64,000 bases of DNA from Octopus vulgaris (lineage: Eukaryota), in NCBI GenBank assembly GCA_951406725.2, contig OX597823.1:100998001-101062000 (forward strand), read 5' to 3'. The position numbers and the translations under genes are program-made. Of the stretch, positions 1,710 through 47,754 are shown in pieces. A model generated the notes under the pieces. The model saw nothing but the letters and a program-made list of their open reading frames with translations. It did no database searches and was not told where the DNA came from. How positions within the stretch are numbered: position 1 is the stretch's first letter; every line of letters begins with the position of its first letter.

Positions 1710-4700
1710 TCACTGGTCTTGCCGGGTCTTCTGACGCACAGCATACTTCCATAGGTCTCGGTCTCTGGTCATTTCCTTGGTGAGACCTAGAGTTCGAAGG
1801 TCGTGCTTCACCACCTCGACCCAGGTTCTCCTGGGTCTACCTCTTCCACAGGTCCCCTCAACTGCCAGAGTGTGGCACTTTTTCACACACCTATCTTCAT
1901 CCATTCTCGCCACATGACCATACCAGCGCAATCGTCTCTCTTGCACACAACATCTGATGCCTCTTAGGTCCAACTTTTCTCTCAAGGTACTTACACTCTG
2001 TCGACTATGAACACTGACATTACACATCCAACGGAGCATACTAGCTTCATTTCTCGCGAGCTTACGCATGTCCTCAGCAGTCACGGCCCATGTTTCACTG
2101 CCATGTAGCATGGCTGTTCGTACACATGCATCATACAGTCTGCCTTTTACTCTGAGCGAGAGGCCTTTAGTCACCAACAGGGGTAAGAGCTCCCTAAACT
2201 TTGCCCAGGCTATTCTTACTCTAGCCGTTACACTTTCAGCACACCCACCCCCACAACTGACTTGGTCACCAAGATAACGGAAGCTATCAACTACTTCTAG
2301 CTTTTCCCCCTGGAAAGTGACGGAAGTTGTTTTCTGCAGATTTTCAGAGGTTAATGCTCCCGAGCATCTGCCACATACAAAAACCATCTTCCTAGTTAGC
2401 CTTCCTATGACATTGCTGCACCTCTTATGTGTCCATAGCTTACACTTGGTGCATCTTATAGAGTTTCTACCTACACCTTTTCACCAGATCGAGCAGGGCC
2501 ATCTACCTGAAGGCGTTTGTGATTTGTCTACCTTCCTACTTATTACGACTTTGGTTTTAGCTAGGTTGACTCTAAGGCCCTTCGATTCTAAACCATGCTT
2601 CCACACCTGAAACTACTTCTCCAGTTCTGATAATGACTCAGCAATTAGAGCAAGGTCATCAGCATAGAGGAGCTCCCAGGGGCAGCCTGTCTTGAATTCC
2701 TCCGTTATTGACTGGAGGACTATGAAAAATAGGAGGGGGCTGAGGACTGAGCCTTGGTGGACCCCTACCTCTACCCGGAATTTTTCACTGTACTCGTTGC
2801 CAACCCTCACCTTACTAGCAGCGTCCCTGTACATGGCTTGCACAGCTCTCACTAACCATTCATCTATTCCTAGTTTCCTCATTGACCACCAGATGAGGGA
2901 TCGGGGGACCCTGTCGAAGGCTTTCTCCATGTCAACAAAAGCCAGGTACAGGGGCTTATCTTTGGCTAGGTATTTCTCCTGCAGCTGCCTTACCAGGAAT
3001 ATAGCATCAGTGGTACTTTTCCCTGGCACGAACCCAAACTGCATCTCATCTAAACTAACTCTCTCTCTAATTAGTTGGCTTATGACCCTCTCTGTAACCT
3101 TCATCACCTGATCCAACAGCTTGATACCTCTGTAATTATTTGTATCTAGGGCATCACCTTTACCTTTGTAGCAGTTGACTATTATGCTGCTACACCAGTC
3201 ATTGGGTATGACTCCTTCATGTATCACCTGATCAACTATACAGGTGACTAGGCTATAGCCGACACTACCAGATATTTTGAGCATCTCTGCAGTGATACCT
3301 GATGGGCCTGGGGCTTTCCCTGTCTTCATGCTTCTAATTGCCTTAGCTACCAAGGAACTATCAACCCTGATAGCTGTTCCCTCTGTTGGGTCAACGTTCG
3401 GCAGACTCTCTTTATCCCATTCATTTTCTTTATTCAGCAACCTTTCATAGTGGCGTCTCCAAGCCTCTCTCTTTGCATCCTCGTTTAGCGCAAGTGAACC
3501 ATCTTCCATGCGAACACACTTCTCTCCTACCACATCACAATTCTCTCTCACACACTGTCTTGCAACGCGAAACACCTCCAGTCTTTGGTCCTCACGGCGC
3601 AGAACATTGGCAAATTTTTTCTTATCTGCTTCCCCTCTGGCTAGATAGACCTGTCTCCTAGCTTCCCTTTTAGCAGTCTGATACAATTCCTTGCTACCAC
3701 CATTCTTCCAGTGCCTCCAAGTCTGTCTCTTTTCTCTAATAACCCTGTCTACAACACTGTCCCACCACCACGTTACCTTGGGACGAGAGGGGACTTTGCA
3801 CCAGCCACAGATCTGGTCAGTGGCTCTCAGCAGGTTGTCCCTTAGAAACGTCCAGTTGCCCTCTACCCCATGTGATACTCTATCCCCTTCTACTTCGTCA
3901 AAGGCTTCAAGTAACATGTCTCTAAATCTCTGTCCATTCGCAGGATCTTTAAGCTTCTAGATCCTTCTTCTCCATGTTGGTCGTCTTCTGGTTGTCCTCC
4001 TACTCCTGATCCTAAAGTCACTAACTACCAGTCTATGTTGTGGGGTACATTCTTCGCCTTGGAAGGTTTTGGCATTTATAAGTAGCCATCTCTCCCTTTG
4101 CCTGGCAAGGATGTAGTCAATTTGGCTGGTATGTTGGCCCGATCGGTAGGTGACTAGGTGGCTGGTAGGTTTCCTGAAGTTAGTGTTGCAAATCATAAGA
4201 TTATTTGCATCGCAGAACTCCAGCAGCCTGGTTCCCTCCTCGTTGCGGGAACCAGAGCCATAGCCTCCATGTACGCCATGGAAGCCCCCAGCATGTCGTC
4301 CAACGTGACCATTGAAGTCACCAGCCACAAAAAGAAGGTCTCTGTCGTTCGTCAACGAGGTAGTCTGCAGTAGAGTGTCATAGAATCGGTCTTTCTGTCC
4401 ATCAGGTAGCCCCGACTGAGGAGCATAGGCTGATATAATGGTTGCTAAACTATGATGAAGCGCTAATCTAATCTTAAGTATTCTGTCGCATACTCTGATT
4501 ACCTCAATTACTTTATCTACCCATTTCTCAGCGATAAGTATACCCACGCCTCCAACCCCGTCAGTGTTCCCTGCCCAGAAAATCTTGTACCTGTGTTCCT
4601 TGCCTGTGAGGAACCTAGCAGAACCTCCTCTCCACCTTACTTCTTGCATGCAACATATATCCACACATCTCCGTTCAAGCATCTCAACTATCTCGCCAGA

Positions 4701-4714
4701 CCTACCTTTCAGTG
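1710..4714 (-). pseudogene. RTE ORF (endonuclease-reverse transcriptase) broken by three in-frame stops near 3957, 2613 and 2481
   Basis: ORFs 3957-4682, 2613-3917 and 1710-2387 share a frame; hand translation runs through the gaps without a frameshift. Confidence 0.93.
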
Positions 4715-5520
4715 TGTGGTTATACGTATATATATTTATTGATAGAGATAATTTTAGATCTTAATTCTTATATTTATATATATTTATTGATAATTTAGTT
4801 ATTATTCAAATATTTTATAATTATTTGATTTGAACTTAAATTTAATAATATGAATAGTGATTATTTTTTTGTTAAATAATTAGGTAATTAGATATTGACT
4901 ATAACTGAGATAGGGTTATTCGTGAGTTTATTATGTTTTTTTAAAGCCATATTATATCTGAATAGATAAATACATTTTTTATCTATTCTTACCTTAAAAA
5001 TTAATATTTAACATTATAATTGGATTGTATGACATAATCATAATCGTTAAAGTTTCTAGTTTGATAATAGAGTTTTTATAAGAAAAATTATTATTTTATT
5101 TATTTCTTTAAAAATATTGTTTAAATATATTTGCTTATTTATTTAACTATTATCTTTAACCTGAAGATTGACTATAACCATAATTCGAATTATTAATTGA
5201 ATTTAAATTATTGTAATTTGAATTAGGTTATGGGCATGAAATGTACGTAGTGGTTTTACTTTTTATCTTATATTAAACTTTTTTATACTTTTTGATAGTT
5301 ATATATATATTTAATAAAAAATATATAAAAAAAAATTTATAAATATAAATTAATAATTTTAATTTTAAATTTAAATAATTTAGATTTTTAAATTTTATAT
5401 TTTATATTTTTTGTATATTATATTAATTATTTTTTATTTTTATGTTTTGGTTTACGTTTTTCACTGTTTGATTTGCCTAATAGTGGTTTTATCTCGAATT
5501 TAATTTATATTATGTGAATA
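4715..5520 (+). mobile_element. Degenerate AT-rich Penelope-like pLTR region ending in (TA)n; related to sequence 1-750
   Basis: Carries a hammerhead motif at 5159-5251; 4735-4955 is a diverged copy of ~158-368. Confidence 0.55.
5159..5251 (+). ncRNA. Type I hammerhead ribozyme (partly decayed) with 70-nt stem II
   Basis: ac CTGAAGA [ttgactataacc...ggttatgggcat] GAAA tgtacg TA gt: core boxes, hairpin stem II, near-palindromic stem III, GUA site. Confidence 0.65.
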
Positions 5521-5654: not shown

Positions 5655-5756
5655 GGAGTAAACACATAAATGTGAAACAAGGTGGAAAAAAGAGTACTCA
5701 AATACCAATGGTAGAGTAATATGCTTTATTTAAAGCAGCAGAAAATTCAACAAAAC

Positions 5757-5794
5757 CTGTTACTCTGAGTTTCGCGTTGCCGTTCATCGGACAG
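5757..5794 (-). ncRNA. Minimal type I hammerhead, CCGAUGA core variant
   Basis: ctgt CCGATGA acggcaacgc GAAA ctcagag TA acag. Confidence 0.6.
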
Positions 5795-5820
5795 TTTTTG
5801 CTAGAATATTCTAGCAAAAA

Positions 5821-5858
5821 CTGTCCGATGAATGGCAACGCGAAACTCAGAGTAACAG
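5821..5858 (+). ncRNA. Minimal type I hammerhead, CCGAUGA core variant (mirror copy)
   Basis: ctgt CCGATGA atggcaacgc GAAA ctcagag TA acag; stem I ctgt/acag. Confidence 0.58.
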
Positions 5859-5890
5859 GTTTTGTTGAATTTTCTGCTGCTTTAAATAAA

Positions 5891-5978
<88 letters not shown>

Positions 5979-6304
5979 ATATATATATGCCTTCATATAT
6001 TACCAAACAATACTCTGAACTAATACCACTTTCATTGCTAATAATGAATATGTGTGTGTGGAGAGAGAGAGGGTTATAATCCAATGCGTTCTTTTAAAGC
6101 ACATCTGCATATCCCAGCTCTGCAATGTATATCCATAGATATTATGATCTATATGAGAGTTGGAAACACTGGAGAATGTTAAATACTGGAAAATATTTAT
6201 TACATTGTAATAACATATCAAAACAGAAAACTAGAAAATTTTGGTATTACTTATTCCATATTCCATGTGTTTCTTATCCAAAAGGGGATACATAGGTATG
6301 CATG

Positions 6305-6676
6305 TAGAAAGTTTAGGCTTTCTTCCAGAGTTTTGTTTCGACGAGGAGGTTTCTCCCTCTTTCTCAAAGACTGTCATTACTTTCAAGACAGTACTTCTTG
6401 ATACACAAAACATTTCGGATGTTTTCGTTACGCCAGCACCTGCCATATGAGCACCAACAATTTGACCTCTTTGAAAGTCCGACAGATCTGTCACTTTATT
6501 GAATTTTGATTACTTTTTTCTGTTGATATCTGAAAAGAAAAAGCAATTTTAGTAAAACATATTAAGCAACACTAATAATAAATCAAAAAACATAAAAAAT
6601 AAATGAGCTTTTGACAGTTTTATAGATATTTCAAAATTATGATGCTAGTTGTTTCCATTATTTTGTTCAACCCCTG
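6305..6676 (-). mobile_element. Tc1-like transposon 5' fragment (TIR plus paired-like HTH)
   Basis: TA-caggggttgaacaaaataatggaaac end at 6676; peptide DLSDFQRGQIVGAHMAG...VSRSTV...SGRKPKLS. Confidence 0.85.
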
Positions 6677-9303: not shown

Positions 9304-10200
<897 letters not shown>

Positions 10201-10387
10201 CAAAATTAGAGAATGGAGAAACATGCTTAAATCAATAAAACATCAACTATCCGATGATACCCAATCAATACTTTAATACACCATTACATATGAGTAAAGG
10301 CATTCAAAATATACAGTAATAGTAAAAGTAAAAAGACAAAGAGATATAAGTAAAAAATTTCAAATATAATATGTAATTAAATCAAAA

Positions 10388-10495
10388 CTGACAGCTGTTT
10401 CGGCAGTGAGGGCAGTCATACCTCATTTAACCTATAAGCCATAAAGGCAGGTATAAATGAGGCATTAACAAGGATGCCCCACGGCCTCTTCAGAG
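10388..10495 (-). ncRNA. Type I hammerhead ribozyme with 85-nt stem II
   Basis: Reverse complement of 13011-13118. Confidence 0.82.
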
Positions 10496-13010
10496 AATTA
10501 AATTAAATTTGTTATAATTGTGAAAAATATTATATAACCATATACATATAAATATAAAAATATAAAAATGTAAAATATAAAAACTTATACATCATAATGC
10601 TACACTTATATAATATAATACTCATTGGTACAATAATGGAAGGTAAACAGAACAAAATAAAACAAAATATATATCAGTGTATATATTAATATTAATAAGC
10701 ACCGATATTATACATATTTGGCTAATAGTTTTTTTAAAAAAACTAACACATAGGGAGATGAAAAATAATAATTAAAACCATGGTTCAGTTCATAAAATTC
10801 TAAAGCTATAAAAGTTAATAAAAATTACTATTAATATTAATAATAATAATAATAATAATAATAGATACAGTTATGTTTGCACCAAGTCCATCCTTTCAAG
10901 ATCGAAATAACTATGAGTTTAGAAATGCTGACCACTAGGTAATGATAATTTAGATTAATTCGATTGGCTATTGGTTTGAAATTTAAATCACAAAAGAAAA
11001 TTATACGGTTGGTTAGTCAAGGAACGCCAATATTCACACGCGCATCTACAGATCAATCGCACATACACACATAGTTATATGTATATACATACACTTATAC
11101 ACATACATAATCACAAGCAACAACTAGCACATAGATAAACAAAAAGGGAAGTAACTATGCTACCATTTAGTCCTTCAAAATTATAACTATGCCTCAAAAA
11201 ACGAAAAAGAACCACACATGCATTTCATAAAATATTTAATTTAGATATAAATATATTTTTAAATATCAGTATGTTACTAAGTCAGATAATTATTTCATTG
11301 GGTAACTTAAAATTTATAACACCAGTTTGTTGCAAAGTAAACATACGGTTGTTAGATTTATCGTAAGTTTGTTATGATTCCAAGTACGCTAAATTATAAA
11401 ATATAAAATATATATTAATTTATATATTATAAATAAATCTCTTATTTACTTAATAAATTTAATGCCATAATATACCAGTTTAGGCATTAAAAAATAGAAG
11501 GGGAAGTACTAATGCAAACGCATATGAGAACATCACAGAAATTTAAAAAATTTTTTTTTTTTTTTTTTTTTATATTATAAATACTTAAGATAAAATGTGA
11601 TAAAATAAATAAGAAGGAATAAATGCGAAGGAATAAATACGGTTATACACATATTATAAGTACAAACCAGTATATATGTATTCATATATTATTAAAATTA
11701 AATAAAAATAAATGATAGATATGTATGTATAAAACTACCCTAGTATAAGTAAATAAGTAAAAAATAAATAGATAACAAATTAGATGACTTGATATGTATG
11801 TAAAAATCTACACTTAAATAGGCAAATAAATAAATAATTAGAAGACTAAATGCAGAGATTGATAACATTACAATAAAATAAAAAAATAAATAAAGTGAAT
11901 ATATATGTTATATTGATGAAAGTAAATATGTATGGAAGGATAATTTAAAGTACAGATCCAGAGGACTATAGATATAAACTAAATATATAAGGCTGGTAAT
12001 ATTTATAAAGCCAAATGTATGTAAATGAAAAAATGAAAAAATGAAAAAGGTTTATTAGTAAATAGCATAAGATACAAATTAAGGTGAGTACAAAGAAAGA
12101 CCAAATATACAATAAAAACCTGCCAAATAAACACATACAAAAAACCTATATTCTCAACCTAAACACACCAAACTCATAAAAGGCTCTCATATATTACATA
12201 TTATACAATATCATTACATTATCTAGAGCTAGGTATCTAACCAGGATATACATATATACTATGCAATATTAGAAAACTTCAAAAATCACATATTACAAGG
12301 CAAATACCAAAATGAATATGTTATTTCATGTCATATTGCATTTCCCTTAAAAAACAAACAAAAACCCACATATAAAAACAAGAAACAAATAATACTAGAC
12401 ACATCTATTATTATTATACAAATGTAGCTATAAAAATTATAAAATTATAAATTTATAAGTTGTTTACTTTAGAATTATAGAAGACCACAGGTATAGTTAG
12501 TTAAAGAAGGGAGTTAAAAAATTAATAATAGTGGAAGTGCTAAGTTCTATTTGAATCTAGAAAAGGTGAACGGTAGCCTATGAATGCAAAAGAAGTTATT
12601 TCGATCTTGAAAGGATGGACTTGGTGCAAACATAACTGTATCTATTATTATTATTATTATTATTATTAATATTAATAGTAATTTTTATTAACTTTTATAG
12701 CTTTAGAATTTTATGAACTGAACCATGGTTTTAATTATTATTTTTCATCTCCCTATGTGTTAGTTTTTTTTTAAAAACTATTAGCCAAATATGTATAATA
12801 TCGGTGCTTATTAATATTAATATATACACTGATATATATTTTGTTTTATTTTGTTCTGTTTACCTTCCATTATTGTACCAATGAGTATTATATTATATAA
12901 GTGTAGCATTATGATGTATAAGTTTTTATATTTTACATTTTTATATTTTTATATTTATATGTATATGGTTATATAATATTTTTCACAATTATAACAAATT
13001 TAATTTAATT

Positions 13011-13118
13011 CTCTGAAGAGGCCGTGGGGCATCCTTGTTAATGCCTCATTTATACCTGCCTTTATGGCTTATAGGTTAAATGAGGTATGACTGCCCTCAC
13101 TGCCGAAACAGCTGTCAG
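13011..13118 (+). ncRNA. Type I hammerhead ribozyme with 85-nt stem II
   Basis: ct CTGAAGA ggccgtggggca...tgccctcactgcc GAAA cagctg TC ag; inner helix atgcctcattta/taaatgaggtat; GUC site. Confidence 0.82.
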
Positions 13119-13483
13119 TTTTGATTTAATTACATATTATATTTGAAATTTTTTACTTATATCTCTTTGTCTTTTTACTTTTACTATTACTGTATATTTT
13201 GAATGCCTTTACTCATATGTAATGGTGTATTAAAGTATTGATTGGGTATCATCGGATAGTTGATGTTTCATTGATTTAAGCATGTTTCTCCATTCTCTAA
13301 TTTTGTAGTATTAATTTACGGTAATATTATTACCTTTACCCATATAATACAATAGATGAACTGATTGTTTGACAATTTTTAACATCTATGTATTAGTCTT
13401 GTTGGGTACCTATCTGGCAGTATATTGGATATATATTATCCCATGGTGGGTTGAATTCTCAACCCCTATCTCATTTTATAACC

Positions 13484-13484
<1 letters not shown>

Positions 13485-13521
<37 letters not shown>

Positions 13522-13652
13522 CATATATATATATATACATACATACATATATACATATATATATATACATACATATATACATATATATATATACATACAT
13601 ATATACATATATATATATACATACATATATACATATACATACATATATATAC

Positions 13653-13745
<93 letters not shown>

Positions 13746-13838
13746 CATACAATATATGTATATATATATATATATACATACATATATGCATACATATATA
13801 TACATACATATATGCATACATATATATACATACATATA

Positions 13839-13902
<64 letters not shown>

Positions 13903-13934
13903 TATATGTATGTATATATATGTATGCATATATG

Positions 13935-13966
<32 letters not shown>
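13485..13966. repeat. Compound (TA)n/(TACA)n microsatellite
   Basis: Direct reading. Confidence 0.95.
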
Positions 13967-13970
<4 letters not shown>

Positions 13971-14567
13971 AAATTAGAAAATGGAGAAACATACTTAAAT
14001 CAATCAAACATCAACCATCAGATGATACCCTATCAATACTTTATTACACCATTACATAACAGCAAAGGCATTATACAAAATATATTGTAAATATAATTAG
14101 ACAAGGAAATAGAAATATAAAATATAATATATAATTATATCATATCTGACAGCTGTTTCGGCCGTAAGGACAAGTATGCCTCATTTAACCTATAAGCCAT
14201 ATAAGGCAGGTATAAATGAGACATTAACAAGGAAGTCCCACGGCCTCTTCAGAGAATTTAATTTATTATAAGTGTGAAAAAAATTTTTTTACATATAAAT
14301 ATAAAAATATAAAATATAAAAACGTGTGCATAGACACTCCTAATACTACACATATATATATACTCATTAATACAATAATACAAAATAAACAAAATATATC
14401 AATATACATTAACAAACACAGTTATTCTACATATTGGGCTTCTAGTTCCAAAACTAACCTACACTCACATTTAAATTTAAATCAAACATATACATAAAAA
14501 ATAATTAAAAAAAACACACAGTTCAGTTCATAAAATTATAAACCTACAAAAGTCCATAAAAATTACT

Positions 14568-14608
<41 letters not shown>

Positions 14609-15333
14609 CAACCATGTCTGTACCAAGTACATCAATCGGACATCTACATATCTATAAGTCTGATTCTTCTGTCCGCTTGATATTGATTATTCTAGATTGA
14701 TTCGATTGGCTTATAGTTTTAAATTTGAATCACAAAAGAAATTTTACGGTTAGTTAGTCAAGAAACGCACATACGCACACGCACATCTACAGATCAATCG
14801 CACATACATACATAATTATATGTATACACACACACATACACTCAAACACATACATATCCACAAACACAGTCAAACACATAAATAAATAAATAATAAAAGA
14901 GGTATAATCGTAACTATGCAGCCATCAAGCCTCTCCAAAACGACAACAATGCCGCTATATTAACTAAGAAGATCCACTCACATATTTCCATAAAATATTT
15001 GTTATAAAGATAGATATATTTATATATCAAGACATAGAATGTAATTTTTCATAAGGTACACAATTTTTATGCCACCGTATTTTTTTAATCATAGTATTAC
15101 ATAACATAACGTTTACTGATTTCACCGTAATTTGCTATAAACAAATGTACGCTAAGTTATAAAGTATAGATTAAACATTTTTGTTTGACTATCAATAGAC
15201 ATAGAAACATACATATACTAAATTGACATCGGTTTATAGCAATTATATTATAAGAGATTAATTGTAAGAAGTCAAAATACGGAAATATTCTGGGATATGT
15301 AAACAAACCAGACAAGACAAAAATTCTTTATAG

Positions 15334-15335
<2 letters not shown>
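13967..15335 (-). mobile_element. Second, diverged Penelope-like pLTR copy (paralog of ~10199-11430)
   Basis: Same terminus (tacaaaattaga..atggagaaacat), collinear blocks, hammerhead, (TA)n flanks. Confidence 0.75.
14146..14254 (-). ncRNA. Type I hammerhead ribozyme with 86-nt stem II
   Basis: ct CTGAAGA ggccgtgggac...gtccttacggcc GAAA cagctg TC ag; compensatory changes relative to the 13011 copy. Confidence 0.83.
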
Positions 15336-15387
<52 letters not shown>

Positions 15388-15577
15388 AAAGTAAATAAAT
15401 GGCACAACGATGTACCGATATTTACTGGAAAATAGCGAACGTAATAAATACGACGCTAATGTATAGCTTCACTGCGTATGTACTAGCAAAAATGCGTGTG
15501 TGCAACAAACATGAAAAAAATTTGTCTTACCTCTAGGGAGAACATCTGAAAAATGAAATACCTAGAAATGGATAATG

Positions 15578-15643
15578 CGGTACCGGTTTCAGATTTTTCA
15601 AAATATGTCTGCCCACATATATTTGATTTATCCTCATCAGCCA
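15578..15643 (-). ncRNA. Type I hammerhead ribozyme with 43-nt stem II, inside a separate pLTR-like unit (~15381-15720)
   Basis: tgg CTGATGA ggat aaa tcaaa t atatgt gggcag acatat tttga aaa atct GAAA ccgg TA ccg. Confidence 0.8.
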
Positions 15644-15795
15644 TATTTCACATGTTGCCACATCTATGCCAGTACACTCGACTGAACGCCAAAACGTTGA
15701 CAGAACGAAAACAGTGAAGAAGTTTCAATGAAAATAGTAATGCAATACGAGAGTATTGCTTTCCAGTAAAGGATAGCCCGTGAGGGTAAAATTAT

Positions 15796-16320
15796 AGGAT
15801 TTTAGTCTAACAAATTGACCCCCAATTCTTTATTTTTTTCTAAGCCTGGTACTTATTCTATCAGTGTCTTTTGGCAAATTGCTAAGTTAGAGGGATGTAA
15901 ACTCGCCAACACTAGTTCTCACACAGTGGTGGGGAACAAACACAGATACAAACACACACACACAATTGGCTTGTTTGCTTTCAAGCCAATGTTCCGGGTT
16001 CAGGCCCACTGTATGGCACCTCAGGGATGTGTCTTCTACTATAGCTTCAGGCTGACCAAAGTCTTGCAAGTGGATTTGGTAGGTGGAAACTGAAAGAAGC
16101 CCATTGTGTGTGTGTGTGTGTTTGTATCTGTGTTTGTTCCCCACCACTGTGTGAGAACTAGTGTTGGCGAGTTTACATCCCTCTAACTTAGCAATTTGCC
16201 AAAAGACACTGATAGAATAAGTACCAGGCTTAGAAAAAAATAAAGAATTGGGGTCAATTTGTTAGACTAAAATCCTTCAAAGCATAGATGCAATCTAATG
16301 ACTGAAACAAGTAAAAGAAA
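15796..16320. mobile_element. tRNA-derived SINE (+, ~15967-16320) preceded by an inverted duplicate of its own 3' part
   Basis: 15796-15966 is the reverse complement of 16103-16276; SINE motifs gggttcaggcccactg and gtggatttggtag..ggaaactgaaagaagccc. Confidence 0.8.
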
Positions 16321-17153
16321 GATAATATATATATATATATACACATGCATACATAGAGAGAGACAAAGAGAGGGTTAGATATATACATATGTAGTACATT
16401 GTATACATTACTCTGTTCTAGCTTTATAATTTTTCCTATCTTTGTATGAGTCCTTTGCAAATCTGTTTCATGTAGCAAACTTTCTGAGTCCATTACAGAG
16501 TTGATGTCCAATACAGTTGTTGTTGTTGTTGTTGCTGTTGGTGGTGATGGCAGTGTTGGTGTTGTTGTTTAGCCCAAGGTAGGGCCTGATTGAGCAAATC
16601 TGTGGTGAAAGGCATTCCAGCCATAATCTTCCAACCAGTTTCTCCTTTTGTATCTCAGATTGCATTATTTGATGTATTCTTCCATTTTCAAAATAGAAGG
16701 CTGAGATTTGAAAGAGATTTAATTGCTATATCAAGCAGATCAAAACCCTGTTGAAACTCCTTCATTATTATATAGTTGTTGTTATCGTTTAAACCCAGAT
16801 TAGCCTTAAGTAGACCTATGATTAAAGGCATTCCAGCAATTGTTATCCCAAGGTATACCTAAAACTAGATTATTTATTGTCCTCTTATTGGAGCTAAATC
16901 TTCAAATTACTTTCTGTGTGATTTGAGGGAGATTTTGTTTCTACTAGCCTGAATTTTCACCTGGAACTTCCCTCATAGCTGACTGTAATATATTGATATT
17001 ACATGAGGTTATGAGGTATAATTGAAATGTAGGGCGTTTTGGAGGTTTCAGGCCAGGTATTGTAGAGGTATTAGGGATAGACAGACACAGTGTAGTATTT
17101 GCAATAAGAACATTTGAATATGTTTGGCTGGATGCAGCTAGGGGCTAAGGAAT

Positions 17154-26280: not shown

Positions 26281-26706
26281 TAAGCAATTAAGGGTTTAGC
26301 AACGAATTGCCTCACCACACACCGAATTTAGAAATAGCAGTCAAAGAGTTATAGCTATTCTTTCTACTAAAAGGGAGATCTCAGTAACAACACAGCACTT
26401 GAAAGGCAAACACAGACAGGCAAGAGAGAATGAAATGACGGCAATCTATCATACAATTTTAAGTCACCTACGGACGTACGTTTCGAAATCAAGTTTTAGG
26501 AAAGCATAAGAATTAGATAATTCTACCTTACCCAACTTCTTTTCTCATCAGCGTAGGATACTACAATTATGAATAGTTGTATATTAAATTTTGAGATACT
26601 AGAAGGCATCATCTCAACTCAGTGTCAGAGCGAGCTAAAGCATTACCAGTACCACGAAATTCAAAGTGTGAATGAAAGTTTGTGTCACCAGCCCCTTTCC
26701 ACCCGC

Positions 26707-27056: not shown

Positions 27057-27080
27057 TCAATATATATATATATATATACA

Positions 27081-28344
27081 CAGGGTCAGGCAAAATGATC
27101 TGACACATTTGTAGGTTAAATAAAAGGCATTGTTTTTCGTTTCTTTTTCAGTTGCTGCCATGAATTGGACTGGTGAGCATCGCGCTTTCATTGTGGAAAT
27201 GTTTATCAAAACAAACGATTCTGTAACTGCAACACAAAGAGCGTTCCGTTTGCACTTCAATCTTGGTAGACATAATCCCGTACCAGCTCGAAACACGATC
27301 TTTTTATGGGTTACCAACTTCAGAGCTACTGGATCTGCATTGAAACGAAAATCAACTGGCCGGCCTCGCACCGCCAGATCTCCAGAAAATGTGGCAGCGG
27401 TAAGAGCTTCAGTTCAACAGTCTTCACGCCGTTCCACATTTAAACACGCCCAGGCTCTTAGACTTTCCGAAAGAAGTTTGCGAAGAATTCTTCACAATGA
27501 TCTTCAAATGCATCCATACAAAATGATGTTGGCACAAGAACTCAGCGAAAGGGACACTGAAACTCGCAGAGCATTGTGTTTGGAAATTCAACAACGTCCC
27601 CCATGCAGCAGTTGTGTTGTTCAGTGACGAGGCACATTTTCACCTGTGTGGCACAGTGAATAAGCAAAACGTCAGATACTGGGCCGAGAACAACCCTCGT
27701 GAGTTGCATGAATGCCCTTTGCATTATCTTCGGGTGACTGTATGGTGTGCTGTGGCAGAATTCGGTATATGGGGTCCGTACTTCTTCGAAGAAGACAACG
27801 TTACAGTGACTGTGAACTCTGATTGATATTGTGAGATGCTGGAGACTTTTCTCAGACCAAAATTGAATATGCTCCACGATATGGACAATGTTTGGTTTCA
27901 ACAGGATGGGGCAACATTTCACACTTCTCGACGTGCGATGGGGATTTTGAGGAATATGTTCTTTGGTCATTTGATCTCATTGCGTGGTGACATCGGTTGG
28001 CCCGCCCGTTCACCTGATTTAAATCCGTGCGATTTTTTTCTCTGGGGATACCTCAAGGTATACATTAATCGCCCTCGATCTATTGAACAACTTAAAGATG
28101 CAATTCGTCAAGAAATTACTGCCATTCCACATGAAATGACCCGCCGAGTTATTGACAACTTTCGTGAACGCTTTCGACAGTGTGTGGACAATAATGGATC
28201 CCAGTTGATTGATTTAATTTTTAAAACAATGAAACAAAATGGCATTATATGTACTTTTCAAAAATAAAAACACTTCTTTGTTTCTGTACTTCATTTGCCT
28301 TTTATTTAACCTACAAATGTGTCAGATCATTTTGCCTGACCCTG
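27081..28344 (+). mobile_element. Tc1/mariner superfamily DD41D (rosa/Visitor-type) transposon, near full length
   Basis: 49-bp TIRs cagggtcaggcaaaatgatctgacacatttgtaggttaaataaaaggca; TA-rich flanks. Confidence 0.95.
27160..28267 (+). pseudogene. DD41D transposase, disrupted (frameshift/deletion near 27600, stop at 27824)
   Basis: FSDEAHF, WFQQDGA and WPARSPDLNPCD motifs; 41 residues counted between the 2nd and 3rd catalytic Asp. Confidence 0.9.
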
Positions 28345-32228: not shown

Positions 32229-32359
32229 GTAGCTTGCTAACCAACCACATGGTTCCGGGTTCAGTCTCACTGCGTGGCATCTTGGGCAAGTGTCTTCTGC
32301 TATAGCCCCGGGCTGACCAATGCCTTGTGAGTGGATTTGGTAGACGGAAATTGAAAAAA

Positions 32360-33186
32360 GCGACGTGGTCCGACCCGTAAGTCGTAAGAATCAGACCCGT
32401 AAACTTACAGGTCGGCCCACGCTGGATAGTCATGCTCTAGGTGACCGCCGCACCCCAAGGGGGTCCAGACTACTATGTAGGGTTGTAGTTGATCGGCATA
32501 GGTGACCGTCTGGAAGGGATGTCCTCGTAGCTCCTTTTCTGCCAACGGTTAGCTCCCCGTCTGCCGGTGCAAGATCGACTCTACACGGCTGGCGTGTCCC
32601 CGAATTTCCGCCGCCACACCGCCCGCCTTTTCAGACGCTGCGTTTGCTCACCCGTTGACGCCCGCGTTTGCCCGCCTTCGTCTGCCTTCGCCCGTCTCCG
32701 GACGTCCGCCTTTGCCCGCCTTTCAGACGCTGCGTTCTCCCACCCCTTTCGACGCACGCGTTCGCCCGCGTTCGCCCGCCTTCTCCCGCAGCTCCGCCGC
32801 GCTACCGTGCCCGATCTAGTGAGGCTGAAGCGAACCTAGCGGTGTCGCCCGCGTACACGTGGACGTAGGCGCGATCGATGCCGTCAGTCGCCGGGAGTGC
32901 GTGGCGATATGCACCGGGTAAAAACAGCGACGTTGTCCGACCCGTGAGTCGGAAGAATCCGACCCGTAAGCTTACGGGTCGGCCCACGCTGGATAGTCAC
33001 GCTCTAGGTGACCGTCACACCCCAAGGGGGTCCAGACTACTATGTAGGGTTGTGGTTGATCGGCATAGGTGACCGTCTGGAAGGGATGTCCTCGTACCCC
33101 CTTTTCTGCCAACGGTTAGCTCCCCGTCTGCCGGTGCAAGATCGACTCTACACGGCTGGCGCGTCCTCGAATTTCCGCCACCACCA
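32360..33186 (+). repeat. GC-rich ~567-bp tandem unit (1.5 copies), same family as 49340-50350; putative rDNA spacer subrepeat
   Basis: Unit restarts at cgacgt(g/t)gtccgacccgt (32361, 32928); motif actactatgtaggg at 32469 and 33036. Confidence 0.8.
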
Positions 33187-33245
33187 TGACCGCAGTCAAA
33201 TGACTAAAACAAGTAAATATGTATGTATATATATATATATATGTA

Positions 33246-33341
33246 TCTATATATATAAAAAGCAAGTTGTCTGTCTGTGTGTCTGTCAGGTTGTACCCTC
33301 ACCCTGACCACGGCTTTCAACCGATTCTGATGAAACTTGAC
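33246..33341 (+). mobile_element. Helitron 5' fragment
   Basis: a-TCtatatatataaa...gtctgtctgt start resembling the element at 56911-57276. Confidence 0.55.
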
Positions 33342-33731
33342 CAAAGCCTTGTGAGTGGATATGGTAGTCAGAAACTGAAAGAAGCCCAGGCGTAGGGTGG
33401 CTGGCGGTAAGTAACTTACATGGTTTCTGTTTCAGTCCCACTACATGGCACCACGGGCAAGTGAATTCTGCAATATCCTCGGACAGACTAAAGCTTTGTG
33501 ACATTGTCTTCGATTGTTGATTTTTTTTCATAGTAGGTATTGTCTTGGAGGAGGGTTATGTGTTTATGCAGTTTTCTGATGGTAGAGGGGACAAACAAAG
33601 GCACACAATCGTATACATATACATATATACACTTGTATACGACGGGATTTTTTCAGCTTCCGCTTTGTGAGTGGATTTGGTACACGGAAACAGAAAGAAG
33701 CCCGTCGTATATGTGAATATGTATACACACG

Positions 33732-33780
<49 letters not shown>

Positions 33781-33851
33781 TATATATATGTATGTGTGTG
33801 TGAGTTTCTGTGTTTCTGCCTCCAACATCGCTCGACAACCGATGCTGGTGT

Positions 33852-35110
33852 CCCTCTCCGTAACCTAGCGGTTCGGTAAGATAGAATAAATACTACGCTT
33901 ACAAAGAATAAGTACTGATGTCGATTTGCTCGACAAATGGCGGTGCTCCAGCATAGGCACAGTAAAAGATAAAAAAGTCACGTCGGTATTATAAATTGCA
34001 AGGGAAGTAACTCTACAAGATATTTATTAGTTATCTCCCTTAAATATGTAGTTAACAGAATATACAATTTTTTTGCAATTTACTCTTGTTCTCTGACTAT
34101 TTTCAGTTATTTCACTGCGGCCATGCTTGGAGCGCCGCCTTAGTCTTTTGTGTGTGTTTAGTGTGATTTGTTTTTTGTGTTTTTTTTGCGGGTGTCTTGC
34201 GTGCTTTTTGGGTGTATTTTGTTTTTGGATGTCTTTTTTTGTGTTTTGCGTATATTTTGTGTGTATTTCCCTCTCCGTAACCTAGCGGTTCGGCAAAGGA
34301 GACCGATAGAATAAATACTACGCTTACAAAGAATAAGTACTGATGTCGATTTGCTCGACAAATGGCGGTGCTCCAGCATAGGCACAGTCAAATAAGTAAA
34401 AGATAAAAAAGTCACGTCGGTATTATAAATTGCAAGGGAAGTAACTCTACAAGATATTTATCAGTTATCTCCCTTAAATATGTAGTTAACAGAATATACA
34501 ATTTTTTTGCAATTTACTCTTGTTTTCTGACTATTTTCAGTTATTTCACTACGGCCATGCTTGGAGCGCCGCCTTTAGTCTTTTGTGTGTGTTTAGTGTG
34601 ATTTGTTATTTGTGTTTTTTTGCGGGTGTCGTGTGCTTTTTGGGTGTATTTTGTTTTTGGATGTCTGTTTTTGTGTTTTGCGTATATTTTGTGTGTATTT
34701 CCCTCTCCGTAATCTAGCGGTTCGGCAAAGGAGACCGATAGAATAAATACTACGCTTACAAAGAATAAGTACTGGTGTCGATTTGATCGACAAATGGCGG
34801 TGCTCCAGCATAGGCACAGTCAAATAAGTAAAAGATAAAAGTCACGTCGGTATTATAAATTGCAAGGGAAGTAACTCTAAAAGATATTTATCAGTTATCT
34901 CCCTTAAATATGTAGTTAACAGAATATACAATTTTTTTGCAATTTACTCTTGTTCTCTGACTATTTTCAGTTATTTCACTGCGGCCATGCTTGTCTTTTG
35001 TGTGTGTTTAGTGTGATTTGTTTTTTGTGTTATTTTGCGGGTGTCTTGCGTGCTTTTTGGGTGTATTTTGTTTTTGGATGTCTTTTTTGTGTTTTGCGTA
35101 TATTTTGTGT
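33852..35110 (+). repeat. ~420-430 bp tandem repeat (3 units) built from a SINE 3' piece, a short inverted-repeat module and a TG-rich tract
   Basis: ccctctccgtaa at 33852, 34269 and 34701; two inverted units at 46440-47246. Confidence 0.9.
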
Positions 35111-36310: not shown

Positions 36311-39300
36311 TTTTAAATTCATCAAAGTGATCACAAAAATTTTCAGAATATAAAGTCAAAATATTGCAAATAAGTACTAAAAAGCAACAAATTAAAGTTA
36401 GCAATTTTGTTCACTGTTAGGCTTATTTTTCTAAAAACATGTGACTTGGGTAAACATAAGTTAGGATTATAGTTAGGATCACAAACATAAGAAAGAAGCT
36501 TAGGATAGAAAATGTGTCAAAATTTTGCAAATAAGTACGAAAAATCAACAAAATTGAGTCAGCAATTTTGAGTCAATCTTACTTTTAATATTTTGACAGA
36601 TTTTGTGTTCTGATAACATGTTACTTCAGTGATCTCTTGGGTAAATAAAAATTAACTGATTGATAATAAACTATATTCATCAGAGTTCACTCAAGTGTTA
36701 AAAATTTTCAGGAGACAAGCGTTGAAATTGCAAACAATTGTGTTCACATTTTGTTTTCTGAAAACTTCTGACGTGTAAATATAAGTTAACTGATTGATAA
36801 TGAGATTATATTTATCATAGAATTCACAAAAATAAGAATATTGTTATGGATACAAAATGTGTCAAAATATCATGACTTTAGAAACTTATTGATAAGATTA
36901 TTTCTGTCAAAGAGATCTGAAGAATGTCAAAACGATACAAAACGTATGAAAATATTGCAAAGAAGTACTAAAAAGCAACAAATTTAAATTAGCAATTTCC
37001 TTCATTTTTTTATGTTTATTTTACAATATTTTGACACACGTACTGCTTTCTAAAAACATGTGTGAGTGATCTCATGAGTAAACATGAGTAGAATGATTGT
37101 ATCAAAATAATAATACTAAAAAAAAAAGAAATTCGAATTAGACATATTAAGTTTACTTTCAAGACTTGGTAAACATAATCTTATTATCAATCAGACATAT
37201 CTGAAAACATCGCGAATAAGCATAAGTGAACAACATTGCTAACTCAAATTAATTTTTCAGTACTTATCTGCTATAATTTGACATTTTGTATCCTGAATAC
37301 TTTTTACATTTTTGTGTTAAATTTGTGCATTTGTGCAAAATCTCATTATCAATTTGTGCTAAATCTTTTTATCGATAAACTAGCTAACTAGGCACAAAAG
37401 TTTTCAGAAAATAAAATGTCAACATATTGCATATAAACATAGAAGAGTTAACAAAATTGCTAATCTAAATTTGTTGTTTTTTACAATTTTAGAATTTAGT
37501 TCCAAGTTGCCTCCTGAAAATTTTTATACACATGATTTTAGGAAACAGTACGTGCCTAAATATTGCCAATTTGGTGTATCCTAAAAACTTTTGAGATCTC
37601 TTAAATAAATATTTTCGTGATCTCTTTGATAAATATCTTACTTTCAGTTAAATGTGTTTTTTATGAGTTACAAGAGTTTTTAAGAAGCAAAATGTGTCTA
37701 AATATTGCTAATACGAATTGGTTGTCTTTTAGTACTTCTTTCTATTATTTTGAAAACTTTTGATTTTGTGATCTCTTTGATAAATATAATTTTATCATCA
37801 TTTTACTTATGTTTTTCCATGTTTCTGGAAAGTAGTACGAATCAGAATTTTGCATAAAAATTTTCTGTATCCGGAAAACTTCCGGATACAAAAAACTTTG
37901 ACATTTTTGTCATCTCTGACGTTACTATATTTATTCATGAGATCAAAGTCACAAAAGTTTTCTGCACGTGTTACAATATTGCAAATAAGCATGAAAGAGT
38001 AAACAAAATTGTTAGTTCCACAAATATTATTTAAGTTTACTTTCAAGACTTGATAAACATAATCTTATTATCAATCAGACATATCTGAAAACATCGCGAA
38101 TAGGCATTAGTGAACAACATTGCTAACTCTAATTTTTATACACTGTTTTCAGAAAACAGTACGTGTCAAAATATTGCAAATTTGTTGTACCCAAAAAACT
38201 TATGAGATCTCTTTGATAAATATTTTTGTGATTTTGATAAATACAATCTTATTATCAGTTACTAAATGTATTTTCAGAGAGTTACATGAGTTTTTAGAAA
38301 GCAAAATGTATCTAAATATTGCTAATCCAAATTGGTTGTCTTTTAGTACGTCTTTCTATTATTTTGAAAACTTTTGATATTGTTATCTCTATGATAAATA
38401 TAATTTTATTATCATTTTACTTACGTTTTTCCATGTTTCTAGAAAGCAGTATGAGTCAGAATTTTGCATAAAAATCATAACGAAGCGATCAAAATTGCTA
38501 ACTAATATTTTTTGTATCCGGAAAACTTCCTGATACAAAAAACTTTGACATTTTTGTCATCTCTGATATTATCAGGAAGTTAACATATTTATTCATGAGA
38601 TCAAAGTCACAAAAGTTTTCTGCACGTGTTACAATATTGCAAATAAGCATGAAAGAGTAAACAAAATTGTTAGTTCCACAAATATTAAGTTTACTTTCAA
38701 GACTTGATAAACATAATCTTATTATCAATCAGACATATCTGAAAACATTGCGAATAAGCATAAGTGAACAACATTGCTAACTCAAATTAATTTTTCAGTA
38801 CTTTTCTGCTATAATTTGACATTTTGTATCCTGAATACCTTTTATATTTTTGTGTTAAATATTATTATCGTACGATAACAATATTTGTGCAAAATCTCAT
38901 TATGAATTGATAATTTTGTATTTACCCAACATTATCATTCAATAATAATATTTGTGCTAAATCTTTTTATCGCTATATTAGCTAACTAGGCACAAAAGTT
39001 TTCAGAAAATAAAATGTCAATATATTGCAAATAAATGTAGAAGAGTTAACAAAATTGCTAATTTAAATTTGTTGTTTTTCACAATTTTAGAATTAAGTTC
39101 CAATTTAAATAATTTACCTCCTGAAAATTTTTATACACATGTTTTTAGGAAACTACGTGCCTAAATATTGCCAATTTGGTGTATCCTAAAAACTTTTGAG
39201 ATCTCTTAAATAAATATTTTCGTGATCTCTTTGATAAATATCTTACTTTCAGTTAAATGTGTTTTTTGGGAGTTACAAGAGTTTTTAGAAAGCAAAATGT

Positions 39301-42300
39301 GTCTAAATATTGCTACTTCGGATTTGTTGTTTTTCTCGTACTTTGTATTATTTTTGATACAATTTGCATCCTAAAAACTTTTGAGATCTCTTTGATAAAT
39401 ATTTTTTTGATATAACAAATTCAAATTAGCAATTTTCTTCATTTTTTTTGTTTATTTTATAATATTTTGACACACGTACTGCTTTCTAAAAACGTGTAAG
39501 TGATCTCATAGGTAAACATGAGTAGAATGATTGTATCAAAATAATAATATTAAAAAACGAGAAATTCGAATTAGCAATATTTCGACACATTTTGCTTTCT
39601 AAAAACTCTTAGTAATAAGATTATATTTATCAAAGCGATAATCAAAAGTTTTAAGGATACAACAAATTTGCAATATTTTGACACGTACTGTTTTCTAAAA
39701 ACGTGTATAAAAATTTTCAGGATACAAATTGTATTGCAAATAAGCATAAGTTAACAACATTGCTAACTCAGTAATTTTTCAGTACTTATCTGCTATATTT
39801 CAACATTTTGTATCGTAAATACTTTTTACATTTTTGTGTTAAATATTATTATCGTACGATAATAATATTTGTGCAAAATCTCATTATCTCATTGTTAAAC
39901 TTGTATTTACCCAACAGCTGACTTGGTACAAAAGTTTAAGAAAACAAAATGTTAATATATTGCAAATAAGCATAGAAAAGTTTTTAGAAATTGCTAATTT
40001 AAATTTGTTGTTTTTTAGTATTTTAGAATTTAGTTCCAATTAAAATACAATTTGAATCCTGAAAATTTTTATACACATGTTTTCAGAAAACAGTACGTGT
40101 CAAAATATTGCAAATTTGTTGTACCCAAAAAACTTATCTCTTTGATAAATATTTTTGTGATTTTGATAAATACAATCTTATTATCAGTTACTAAATGTAT
40201 TTTCAGAGAGTTACATGAGTTTTTAGAAAGGAAAATGTATCTAAATATTGCTAATCCGAATTGGTTGTCTTTTAGTACGTCTTTCTATTATTTTGAAAAC
40301 TTTTGATATTGTGATCTCTATGATCTTTATTATCATTTTACTTACGTTTTTCCATGTTTCTAGAAAGCAGTATGAGTCAGAATTTTGCATAAAAATCATA
40401 ACGAAGCGATCAGAATTGCTAACTAATATTTTTTGTATCCGGAAAACTTCCTGATACAAAAAACTGACATTTTTGTCATCTCTGATATTATCAGGAAGTT
40501 AACATATTTATTCATGAGATCAAAGTCACAAAAGTTTTCTGCACGTGTTACAATATTGCAAATAAGCATGAAAGAGTAAACAAAATTGTTAGTTCCACAA
40601 ATATTAAGTTTACTTTTAAGACTTGATAAACATAATCTTATTATCAATCACACATATCTGAAAACATTGCGAATAAGCATAAGTGAACAACATTGCTAAC
40701 TCAAATTAATTTTTCAGTACTTATCTGCTTTAATTTGACATTTTGCATCCTGAATACTTTTTATATTTTTGTGTTAAATATTATTATCATTCAATAATAA
40801 TATTTGTGCTAAATCTTTTTATCGATAAACTAGCTAACTAGGCAGAAAAGTTTTCGGAAAATAAAATGTCAATATATTGCAAATAAACATATAAGAGTTA
40901 ACAAAATTGCTAATTTAAATTTGTTTTTTACAATTCTAGAATTTAGTAACAATTTAAGTAATTTGCCTCCAGAAAATTTTTATACACATGTTTTTAGGAA
41001 ACAGTACCTGCCAATTTGGTGTATCGTAAAAAGTTTTCTTTGATAAATATCTTATTTTCAGTTAAATGTGTTTCTTGGGAGTTACAATTGTTTTAAGAAA
41101 GCAAAATATTGCTAATTCGGATTTATTTTTTTTTTATTACTTCTTTGTATTCTTTTGATACAATTTTTGCATCCTGAAAACTTTTGAGATCGCCTTGATA
41201 AATATTTTTTAGATATGTCTGATGAATATAATCTTATTATCTTATTAAACAGAATGTTTTAATGATTTTTTTTAGTGATGGAAAAAACATTGAAAAAACA
41301 GGAGAAAACAGGAAAAAACATTGAAAAATGCCTCAATGATAAAAATCATTTTGGCATTTCTTTGGGTGGTATAAAAGACATTAACACTTAGTTTAACTAG
41401 ATTGATACTAGATTACCAGAATCTAGTATTATTTTTGCCTTCTGCTGCAAAATGCAGGCATATTTATTGTAAATAATTAAATGAATAAATTTTAAAGTAT
41501 AAAATTTTCAAATTAAATTTATTACTGATTGAAAGTTCAAATTTAAATTGGCTAACCAGAAAAAATTACTTTAATGCTGGGGTATTTAAAGAGGGTGTGG
41601 TTGAACATTGTCATTGAAGCCTGTTTCGTTCAAAGATGCTAACATTAGCCTATCTAGATTAACTGTTCTTTTTTTTAAATGAACGTGCAAAACAACTGAT
41701 TTGGGTTGGAAATTAGCCTCAATGGTTTTCTACACAGCAAAGTTCTTTTAAGATCTGTTAAGAAGAAAAAAAGGGGATGAAGTACTGAATGACATTCAGA
41801 AAATGTTCATAATTAATTGTTAAAACTCTTAAAGAAGAGGCATAAAAGTTGAAGAAATCAAAATTCAATTTCATCAAGCTAATCTGTTTAATCCTTCTTA
41901 AATCCCAATTTAAAGGATTGTAACTGGTAAACCTATCAATTCTTGAATGTGTTTGTACTCCTTTATTCTCTAACTTCTCTACCGAAGTAATATCTTTGTC
42001 TGATATTAACTGTTCTTTTAAACTATTTCCATATTAAATCAGTTGTTTTGCATGTTCATTTAAAAGAATTTTTAATCTTGATAGACTTTTTGAACGAAAC
42101 TGGCTTCAATGAATATATCTAAGCTTGCCTTCTGTTCAATGATACCCTCTTCAGATAAACTTATAACAAAGTAATTTTTTGTGGACAAATACAAATGTAA
42201 ACTTTCAATCAGTAATAAATTTAATTATAAAATTTAATACTCTCATTTATTCATTTCATTATTTTCCGAAGATTTAAAATAAATATGCCTGCATTTTCCA

Positions 42301-45300: not shown

Positions 45301-46030
45301 AAGATCATATTCATCAAAGAGATCACAAAAGTATTTTGAAAAAATATTTTTGTTATCTCTTTGATGAATATGATCTTATTTATAAAATATTTTGAAAAAA
45401 TATTTTTGTGATCTCTTTGATAAATATAGTCTTATTATTAGTTAACTTATATTTACCATATTGCAAATAAGCATAAAAAATTTGTACCCCGAAAATATTG
45501 AGACTGTTGTGATATCTTTTATAAATATGATATTAATAACGTTAAATTATATTTACCCAAGAGATCACTCAAGTCACAAATGTTTTAAGAAAACAAAATT
45601 AGTCAAAATAAGTAAAATAAGCATAAAATAATGAAAATTGCTAATTTTAATTTGTTGCTTTTTAGTTCTTATTTGCAATATTTTCATAGATTTTGTATCC
45701 TAAAAACTTTTGAAATAATCTTATCAATAATTTAATAAGGTCACATGATTATAATGTCACATAATTGTTAAGTTTGTTTTCTTTTAGTATTTATTTGCGA
45801 TATTTTGGCACATTTTGTATCCTAAATAATTTTCACATTTTTGTGATCTCTATGATAAATATAATCTCATTATCAATCAGTTAACTTATATTTACACGTC
45901 AGAAGTTTTCTAGAAATTGTTTGCAATTTCAACGCTTGTATCCTGAAAATTTTTAACACTTTAGTGATCACTGAAGCAACATAAGTTATCAGAAAACAAA
46001 ATCTGTCAAAATATTAAAAATAAGCATAAC
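36310..46030. repeat. Complex AT-rich satellite with higher-order units, interrupted by a distinct core at ~41240-43110
   Basis: Recurring aaatattgcaaataagcat, gatctctttgataaatat and ttgtatcctgaa; marker taagtttactt..aagacttg near 37147, 38032, 38686 and 40604. Confidence 0.85.
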
Positions 46031-47255: not shown

Positions 47256-47754
47256 GCTTGCAGTCGGCAGGTGGATGTCTTCGGGATCGTTCGGCATGAT
47301 GCCCGAGACGTCAGCCTAAGACGCCGTCAGCCCGGCGGGTGGCCGCCGCCTTCACGCCACCCTTCATTCTCCGTTCGTCCACGCGCCGCGGGTCCGCCAG
47401 CGGCAGGCCTGCGCCGGTCGCCCGTTCCTCCGCCGCGCTACCGTGCCCGAAATCGAAAGAACGAACCTAAGCGCGCGGTATCGCCCACGTACGCGTGGAC
47501 GTAGCCGCGACCGATGTCGCGAGATGCACGCGCTCGATACGCCGACGTGGTCCGTCCCGTAAAATCCCGAAAGATGACAACTGCTGCCAGTATAAGTAGG
47601 GGCTGCCTTCGCTAGCAGCTCCGCCACGCTACCGTGCCCGAAATAGAAAGTACGAACCTAAGCTAGATTACGGAGAGGGAAACACACCAGCATCGGTTGT
47701 CGAGCGATGTTGGAGGCAGAAACACAGAAACTCACACACACATACATATATATA

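Follow-up and report, generated by a model that had tools for sequence, protein, structure and literature searches.

The window analysed here is a 64,000-nt stretch of Octopus vulgaris DNA, AT-rich and full of microsatellites and transposon remains; positions are counted from its first base. Two related elements, A and B, carry the hammerhead motifs described below. The body of element A (10197-12593, minus strand) is 2.4 kb long, with 46% T on its sense strand, and its 3' end abuts (TA)n 192 nt past the predicted cleavage site. An inverted, 5'-truncated copy of A's 3' end (12594-13484, plus strand) is joined to A's 5' end; 10188-10912 and 12594-13318 are 99% identical over 725 nt. This inverted copy extends about 170 nt past the common 3' end (13312-13484) and then meets (TA)n. 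The extension continues in contigs from sequencing runs; one contig instead departs from the reference at 13311 into (TA)n. An expanded (TA)n/(TACA)n microsatellite (13485-13967) separates A from B and is presumably the insertion target. Element B (13968-15335, minus strand) is a paralog of A, approximately 74-75% identical, with its 3' end 179 nt past its cleavage site. Its homology to A can be traced to about 15175, and the next (TA)n lies near 15340. Element B and the minus-strand copy of A end at the same motif before (TA)n.

Both elements share a conserved 3'-terminal block (13203-13311, plus strand, in the inverted copy of A), with differences between A and B at 10 of its 105 columns. 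By analogy with the system described in PMC11167929, this block is a candidate reverse transcriptase (RT) binding or start region. By eye, 13294-13312 (plus strand), the common 3' end as it appears in the extended copy, resembles an AG acceptor preceded by a branch point and pyrimidine tract. An ATG frame of 12 codons begins at about 13204; its only differences between A and B, also judged by eye, are two silent changes and two Ile/Leu exchanges. These could represent a short intron or a uORF.

No Pfam match was found in six frames of 10195-16494, and RVT and GIY-YIG models had no match in the 226 of 242 ORFs of at least 55 aa in the window that passed a complexity filter. Differences between A and B show no codon periodicity (76 vs 79.2 expected; P=0.88). 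Coding remnants in either direction are thus not supported by the domain searches or by periodicity; the absence of ORFs is consistent with truncated or non-autonomous copies. The layout has the traits of a Penelope-like element: an inverted 5'-truncated copy, a hammerhead in the 3' repeat, a fixed 3' end, an optional tail and a microsatellite target. The term Penelope-like terminal repeat (pLTR) used in the earlier note therefore suits this arrangement, though without confirmation from a Penelope ORF, none having been found; the element reads as a Penelope-like 3' region by layout, not by an ORF with RT and GIY-YIG domains.

All or part of the stretch is present in 20 of 24 listed sequencing runs (10 studies, 4 organisms), and none of the runs containing it is listed as RNA. 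Contigs from four runs identify the element as a high-copy repeat: one contig has a depth of 13,640, compared with about 5-60 for the rarest DNA contigs listed, although summed contig depths are not copy numbers.

Several other features were observed in the window. Mariner/Tc1-like remains lie at 27078-28342 and 6234-6509 (DUF4817 and HTH_32, with HTH_SB below cut-off), the former seemingly with short terminal inverted repeats. A divergent fragment of eukaryotic SSU rRNA (51207-51313, plus strand) lies beside spacer-like repeats; GC-rich repeats at 46000-52000 match 32354-34658, and together these may be an rDNA orphon with a partial inverted duplicate. Short, near-perfect inverted-repeat elements with arms of 92-99% identity are found at 9629-9906, 5719-5896 and 15796-16276 and may be MITE-like or paired SINE copies. 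There is also an AT-rich complex repeat array at 37000-45000 (units of about 0.6-1.9 kb) and a 61-nt tandem array at about 900-1730.

Three copies of a type I hammerhead are found in elements A and B. Copy A+ (13011-13118, plus strand) consists of the 5' side of stem I (13011-13012), the core CUGAAGA (13013-13019), stem II (13020-13104), GAA (13105-13107), a palindromic stem III (13108-13115) and the 3' side of stem I (13117-13118), with cleavage predicted after C13116. Copy A- (10388-10495, minus strand) is identical to A+ over its 108 nt, with cleavage predicted after C10390. Copy B (14146-14254, minus strand) has its stem II at 14245-14160 and cleavage predicted after C14148. The earlier note had placed two paralogous hammerheads at the coordinates of A+ and B; both are there, but the second is on the minus strand, which was left unsaid. 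A plus/plus alignment of A and B is meaningless, whereas 98 of 109 columns are identical in the plus/minus alignment.

The type I core is intact in all three copies (CUGAAGA, GAAA and GUC in 3/3). Stem II is closed by G10.1-C11.1, with basal pair probabilities of 0.87-1.0 in context. Stem III of A and B is an 8-nt palindrome with a duplex energy of -11.1 kcal/mol. Stem I beside the core has only 2 bp in A and 3 bp in B, or 4 bp in B's predicted dimer. When two copies are cofolded, 8/8 palindrome bases pair in trans in both A and B, and the dimer is predicted to be lower in energy than two monomers (-8.5 kcal/mol in A, -9.7 kcal/mol in B). A- and A+ are unable to dimerise within one transcript because they are on opposite strands. 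B and A-, 3,758 nt apart, could do so.

Rfam hammerhead models gave no match at gathering scores in the whole window and none at E<=10 in 10200-14700; the long insertion in stem II is the likely reason. Judged from sequence and predicted fold, A+, A- and B belong with the known Penelope-type dimeric hammerheads, as a variant in which stem II is long.

Stem II of A comprises 85 nt with 33 predicted pairs: an 11-bp proximal helix, a 5-nt bulge (13032-13036), a distal helix at about 13037-13091, then a 4-nt bulge, and a small apical loop. The length of 85 nt given for both copies in the earlier note is right for A; in B it is 86 nt. Stem II has a folding energy of -40.7 (A) and -38.7 (B) kcal/mol with 32-33 pairs and z-scores of -4.96 (A) and -6.61 (B); none of 200 shuffles was equally stable. 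Mean pair probability with 100 nt of context on each side is 0.96 in A and 0.95 in B. The apical loop lies about 30 bp from the core, and the 5-nt bulge, 11 bp out, is the sole candidate for a loop 1 - loop 2 contact.

Long arms also occur in three other families in the window. Hammerhead C (26467-26557, minus strand; scan position 26551) has a 60-nt stem II (z -2.06; 7/200 shuffles as stable), a 6-bp stem I and an 8-nt palindromic stem III. It lies 193 nt from (TA)n in an element at about 26710-26279 that has (TA)n on both sides. Hammerhead D (15578-15643, minus strand; scan position 15640) has a 43-nt stem II (z -3.51) and a 6-nt palindromic stem III, 199 nt from (TA)n. It is the weakest case: its basal pairs have P of about 0.16 in context, and the z-score of the whole motif is -0.59. 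Hammerhead E (5158-5252, plus strand; scan position 5161) has a near-perfect 70-nt stem II (z -6.48) flanked on both sides by an extra U, within an AT-rich element at about 4727-5517. Element E adjoins the upstream end of a LINE remnant (2613-4760, minus strand) with frames for an APE endonuclease (PF03372/PF14529) and an RT (PF00078).

A strict descriptor found five motifs in the window (A-, A+, B, C and D), compared with a mean of 0.045 in 200 block-wise shuffles. These shuffles cover the strict descriptor; E was found only by a relaxed scan. A relaxed-scan match at 55430, with a 16-nt spacer and an altered core, was set aside as chance. C and D are without sequence likeness to A/B, and the 3' trailers of families A, C and D show none among themselves. 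Across the families, stem II ranges from 43 to 86 nt and from 15 to 33 pairs and has no sequence in common; a specific ligand is therefore less likely. Cofolding through the palindromes pairs 8/8 bases in A, B, C and E and 4/6 in D. All six hammerheads of the four families in the window fall below Rfam cut-offs. Since the long stem II recurs in C, D and E, it is no quirk of one family.

A pattern scan of metagenomes, covering at least 118 loci, gave no hammerhead homolog by BLAST and one chance flank match of 29 nt; viral contigs gave no pattern matches. Six metagenome loci from one assembly were rejected as relatives, as a canonical short-stem hammerhead with a repeated 3' half explains the match. 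These loci (L020, L035, L067, L073, L084 and L106) are a repeat family of about 300 nt in which a second GAAAC-palindrome-GUC half follows the short-stem-II hammerhead by about 65 nt; L077 is similarly duplicated. The repeated half could allow a dimer-like fold within one unit.

A and B differ in the hammerhead by 10 substitutions and a 1-nt insertion in the apical loop, and all of these are within stem II. The core, stem I and stem III show no differences at 23 positions, where 2.6 and 4.1 would be expected. The covariation claimed in the earlier note can be traced in the corrected alignment. The double change of ggggc/gccct to gggac/gtcct is G13029-C13094 to A-U, the wobble shifts are C13044-G13085 to U.G and G13043.U13086 to G-C, and the repaired mismatch is C13023.U13101 to C-G. 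Pairing is also kept despite G13089 to A, C13091 to U and C13098 to U. The list was accurate as far as it went but left out two changes that break pairs beside the 5-nt bulge: A13031 to U, which loses an A-U pair, and A13090 to C, which loses a U-A pair. In total, two of the 10 substitutions form one compensatory pair, five are one-sided with pairing kept, one is a gain and two are breaks. All five one-sided changes that keep pairing are transitions via G.U; none passes through A.C.

This pattern is weaker evidence than it seems. A covariation score on two sequences is uninformative, being reached by 247/500 shuffles. When the same substitutions were placed at random same-letter sites (20,000 trials), one double change arose by chance in 36% of placements going from A to B and in 25% going from B to A. 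The two broken pairs compare with 3.7-3.9 expected, and two or fewer occurred in 10% or 13% of placements (P 0.10-0.13). An energy null starting from an extant copy gave 2/3000 in each direction (P 0.0007) but was rejected as too lenient, as it ignores reversions and a better ancestral hairpin; an ancestor-aware null was used instead. Among the 1024 possible ancestors, the two most stable give 49/600 and 82/600 (P 0.08 and 0.14), the 11th gives 21/600, the 103rd 24/600 and the median 0/600; the mean P over 40 random ancestors is 0.0025. Because the placement nulls and the worst-case ancestors are non-significant, the A/B covariation is only suggestive. By itself it is a modest finding, and similar ones have been published for these ribozymes.

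Conservation gives stronger support to selection on the hairpin than covariation does. Stem II differs between A and B at 10/85 positions (11.8%), compared with 256/1040 columns (24.6%) in all flanks (Fisher p=0.007) and 58/233 in the nearest flanks (p=0.013). With base-specific flank rates, 24.2 differences are expected in stem II (P 1e-4). The distal helix has 5 differences vs 14.6 expected (P 9e-4); the deficit in the two proximal arms alone is non-significant. The spacer just downstream of the ribozyme is at background (18 differences vs 16.6 expected over 71 aligned columns). The more diverged flanks that the earlier note described are thus real on average but not everywhere. The 3'-terminal block matches stem II in conservation (p=0.64), and 67 of 780 overlapping upstream 85-column windows (8.6%) have 10 or fewer differences, which brings the empirical P nearer to 0.09.

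Variants in the sequencing runs were also compared. Contigs from four runs were aligned to the stretch, giving 31 variant rows at 30 positions at a 3% threshold. Nine positions that reach 3% only in run X3, guessed to be RNA, were left out; 21 remain, from three DNA-like runs. Contigs across the cleavage site in X3 were not counted as evidence on expression or cleavage. At this threshold, stem II has 1 variant in 85 positions and the downstream region 20 in 193 (Fisher p=0.006); the upstream 51 nt have no substitution rows. Against both flanks the difference gives p=0.02, and against the terminal block (1/85 vs 7/109) p=0.08. The sole stem II variant is 13098 C>T, at 4-13% of depth, which turns G-C into G.U. 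The compensatory change at 13029/13094 is below 3% in all four runs. The run contigs are short and carry no linkage between variants. Some have gaps of 9-11 nt in stem II, as expected of decaying copies.

Taken together, selection on the stem II hairpin is likely. The earlier note's claim that the extended hairpin and not only the catalytic core is selected is plausible and favoured by the conservation data, by the strand asymmetry of the wobble pairs given below and by the recurrence of long arms in C, D and E; two copies do not prove it, and the covariation was overstated. The reading that we prefer, with a probability of about 0.55, is that the arms of A and B are pre-folded scaffolds that fix helix II, possibly bound by the RT, in hammerheads of Penelope-like 3' repeats (pLTRs).

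The host family would consist of Penelope-like retroelements, non-coding or truncated, that are present in high copy and target (TA)n. As modelled by cofolding, two copies would pair through the 8-nt palindrome into a dimeric active form, in which stems III and I are intermolecular and stem II is intramolecular. By analogy with known elements, transcripts of tandem source elements would form dimers that cleave after GUC, probably slowly and with the help of the element protein. Reverse transcription, on the same analogy, would start in the conserved block about 190 nt downstream, with insertion into (TA)n. The long stem II would fold first, lock the base of helix II and present the two core strands; it would make up for a stem I of 2-3 bp and a stem III that is unable to close in one molecule, and it may double as a docking site for the RT protein. 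With purifying selection acting on source elements, the pairing of the hairpin and not the core alone would be kept. Dispersed copies such as A+, A- and B are probably inert passengers.

A second explanation is that the core is functional and the long arm is a tolerated by-product, in which fold-back or template switching lengthens the palindrome of loop II and makes it perfect again. According to 10.1101/2021.04.15.439925, template switching can generate stems as well as compensatory changes that span several bases. The present elements produce inverted duplications, short near-perfect inverted repeats lie nearby (9629-9906 and 5719-5896), arm length and sequence differ between families, and the null with the worst-case ancestor is not rejected. 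Such a process predicts Watson-Crick pairs without strand preference. In the five hairpins, however, there are 11 G.U pairs on the ribozyme strand, none on the opposite strand and no A.C oppositions, and the ribozyme strand folds more stably than the opposite strand in 5/5; in a neutrally decaying DNA palindrome, G.T and A.C oppositions should be equally expected. Flank C/T differences exceed A/G differences, 64 to 41. Allowing for this strand bias, the asymmetry has a P of 0.004-0.01 for the five hairpins, somewhat favoured by the fact that families C-E come from scans requiring folding on the ribozyme strand, and of 0.08-0.13 for the five A/B wobble changes alone. A by-product also leaves unexplained the low substitution count and the 5-nt and 4-nt bulges that are kept in both A and B. 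It is a serious possibility, but on balance we doubt it.

Alternatively, subfamilies A and B may have recombined or undergone conversion recently, or rates may simply vary, and the low divergence of stem II would then not reflect structural constraint. The comparison involves two distinct sequences from a high-copy family, and the 8.6% of upstream windows that are equally conserved would be expected on this account. Identity falls at both edges of the ribozyme, however, and the 71-column spacer between the conserved blocks is at background. GC-rich sequence is, moreover, the more mutable in the flanks (C 0.47 vs T 0.19). This explanation is improbable.

A stem of about 33 bp with single-stranded flanks is approximately the size of a pri-miRNA. 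Selection apart from catalysis might act on a Drosha/Dicer or A-to-I editing substrate, or on an element in the next tandem unit's 5' UTR that serves translation or is promoter-proximal. That size speaks for it, the stem here standing between single-stranded core strands, and so would the one-strand G.U that should result if edited A-U pairs were reverse-transcribed. It nevertheless has little to recommend it: the hairpin has no Rfam miRNA match at E<=10 (all 39 matches are microsatellite-like stretches), pair counts of 15 to 33 across families show no fixed ruler, and 4/5 wobble-type differences are C/U, not A/G.

The scaffold reading has a wider form. The recurrence of the long arm in four families within 64 kb, missed by library models, is a more interesting result than the A/B comparison. 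On the basis of these four families and six motifs, we tentatively suggest, at somewhat short of even odds, that many unrelated (TA)n-targeting Penelope-like families in the lineage carry structurally selected hammerheads with a 40-90 nt hairpin as stem II, in which the arm is a scaffold or an RT-binding domain. Rfam and standard descriptors would be blind to these motifs, thousands would be uncounted, and the Naiad clades described as having a 'half-core' would have them. If this is true, ribozyme censuses that use short stem II descriptors undercount such motifs, and the reported absence of hammerheads in some Penelope-like clades needs rechecking. Penelope hammerheads cleave poorly, and insertion does not depend on them in the one system studied in vitro (PMC11167929). 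A long helix II that recurs in unrelated families offers a clean handle on the role of the hammerhead in Penelope-like elements (PLEs), because it can be shortened or re-paired with the core left intact.

Palindromic stems III and action as dimers are known for Penelope hammerheads (PMC4209133, in the text available). The same source gives a length of 6-8 bp for helix II in metazoan Penelope hammerheads and calls this 'larger than usual' (Cervera and de la Pena 2014). Here, by comparison, stem II has 85-86 nt and 32-33 pairs, or 43-70 nt in the three neighbouring families. In the literature consulted, no stem II of 40-90 nt was found for animal Penelope hammerheads; PMC5785218 (Lunse et al.), the 2017 Terminon paper and the supplements of PMC4209133 could hold such examples. 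The available main text of PMC13282606 makes no mention of hammerheads.

Penelope-like elements are described in the accessible parts of PMC8557442 (Craig et al. 2021) as having inverted 5'-truncated copies, optional 3' extensions and (TA)n targets. The same parts list eight Naiad families, two of them from cephalopods, with an 'HHR_half_core' whose halves are 35-50 nt apart and which were not accepted as hammerheads, and an atypical PLE-X1_sMoe with a 9-bp stem II and a 34-nt loop. Like Naiad and PLE-X, the present elements target (TA)n, form inverted copies truncated at the 5' end and have 3' regions that are long and AT-rich; they differ in that the spacer between the core halves is longer and folds as one hairpin. 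By eye, the two core halves at the 3' end of Naiad_Esco in that source are separated by about 45 nt, and a plausible stem III comes after them. Short motifs of families A-E are absent from the consensus files of PMC8557442 that were available, in which line breaks could hide a match.

Hammerheads of the Hydra-clade PLEs have a stem II of 3-7 bp and loops of 3-10 nt, according to the portion of File S2 of PMC8557442 at hand. They share (TA)n insertion and a hammerhead near the 3' end with the present elements, and family E has the same extra unpaired U's. Their stem III usually has 3-4 bp with a loop, in contrast to the pure palindrome found here.

In the anole Poseidon element PAc, whose ORF begins at stem II, the hammerhead is cut at +26 and the RT initiates at +111-118, some 90 nt further on; its 3' ends are set by internal RT start sites, and insertion in vitro does not require hammerhead cleavage (PMC11167929). 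The elements described here are alike in having a hammerhead upstream of a fixed 3' terminus, alternative 3' ends (a 'tail') and AT-rich targets. They differ in the 179-199 nt that separate cut and terminus, in an extension of about 170 nt instead of 30-40, and in having no visible ORF.

Metazoan non-LTR retrozymes are, in the available parts of PMC7229834 and bioRxiv 10.64898/2026.07.22.740005, head-to-tail repeats of about 150-400 nt with canonical hammerheads, and they are proposed to derive from the pLTRs of PLEs. Like them, the present elements are non-coding and carry a type I hammerhead. Unlike them, these elements are 1.4-2.4 kb long with an inverted partner, and their copies are not head-to-tail but inverted or 3.76 kb apart with (TA)n between. 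The discontinuous hammerhead of Clec2, as given in the accessible text of PMC6155905, is a type III ribozyme in a single-copy mammalian 3' UTR with an insertion of 150-1500 nt in helix I; it resembles the hammerheads of this window as a natural ribozyme with a very long insertion in one helix.
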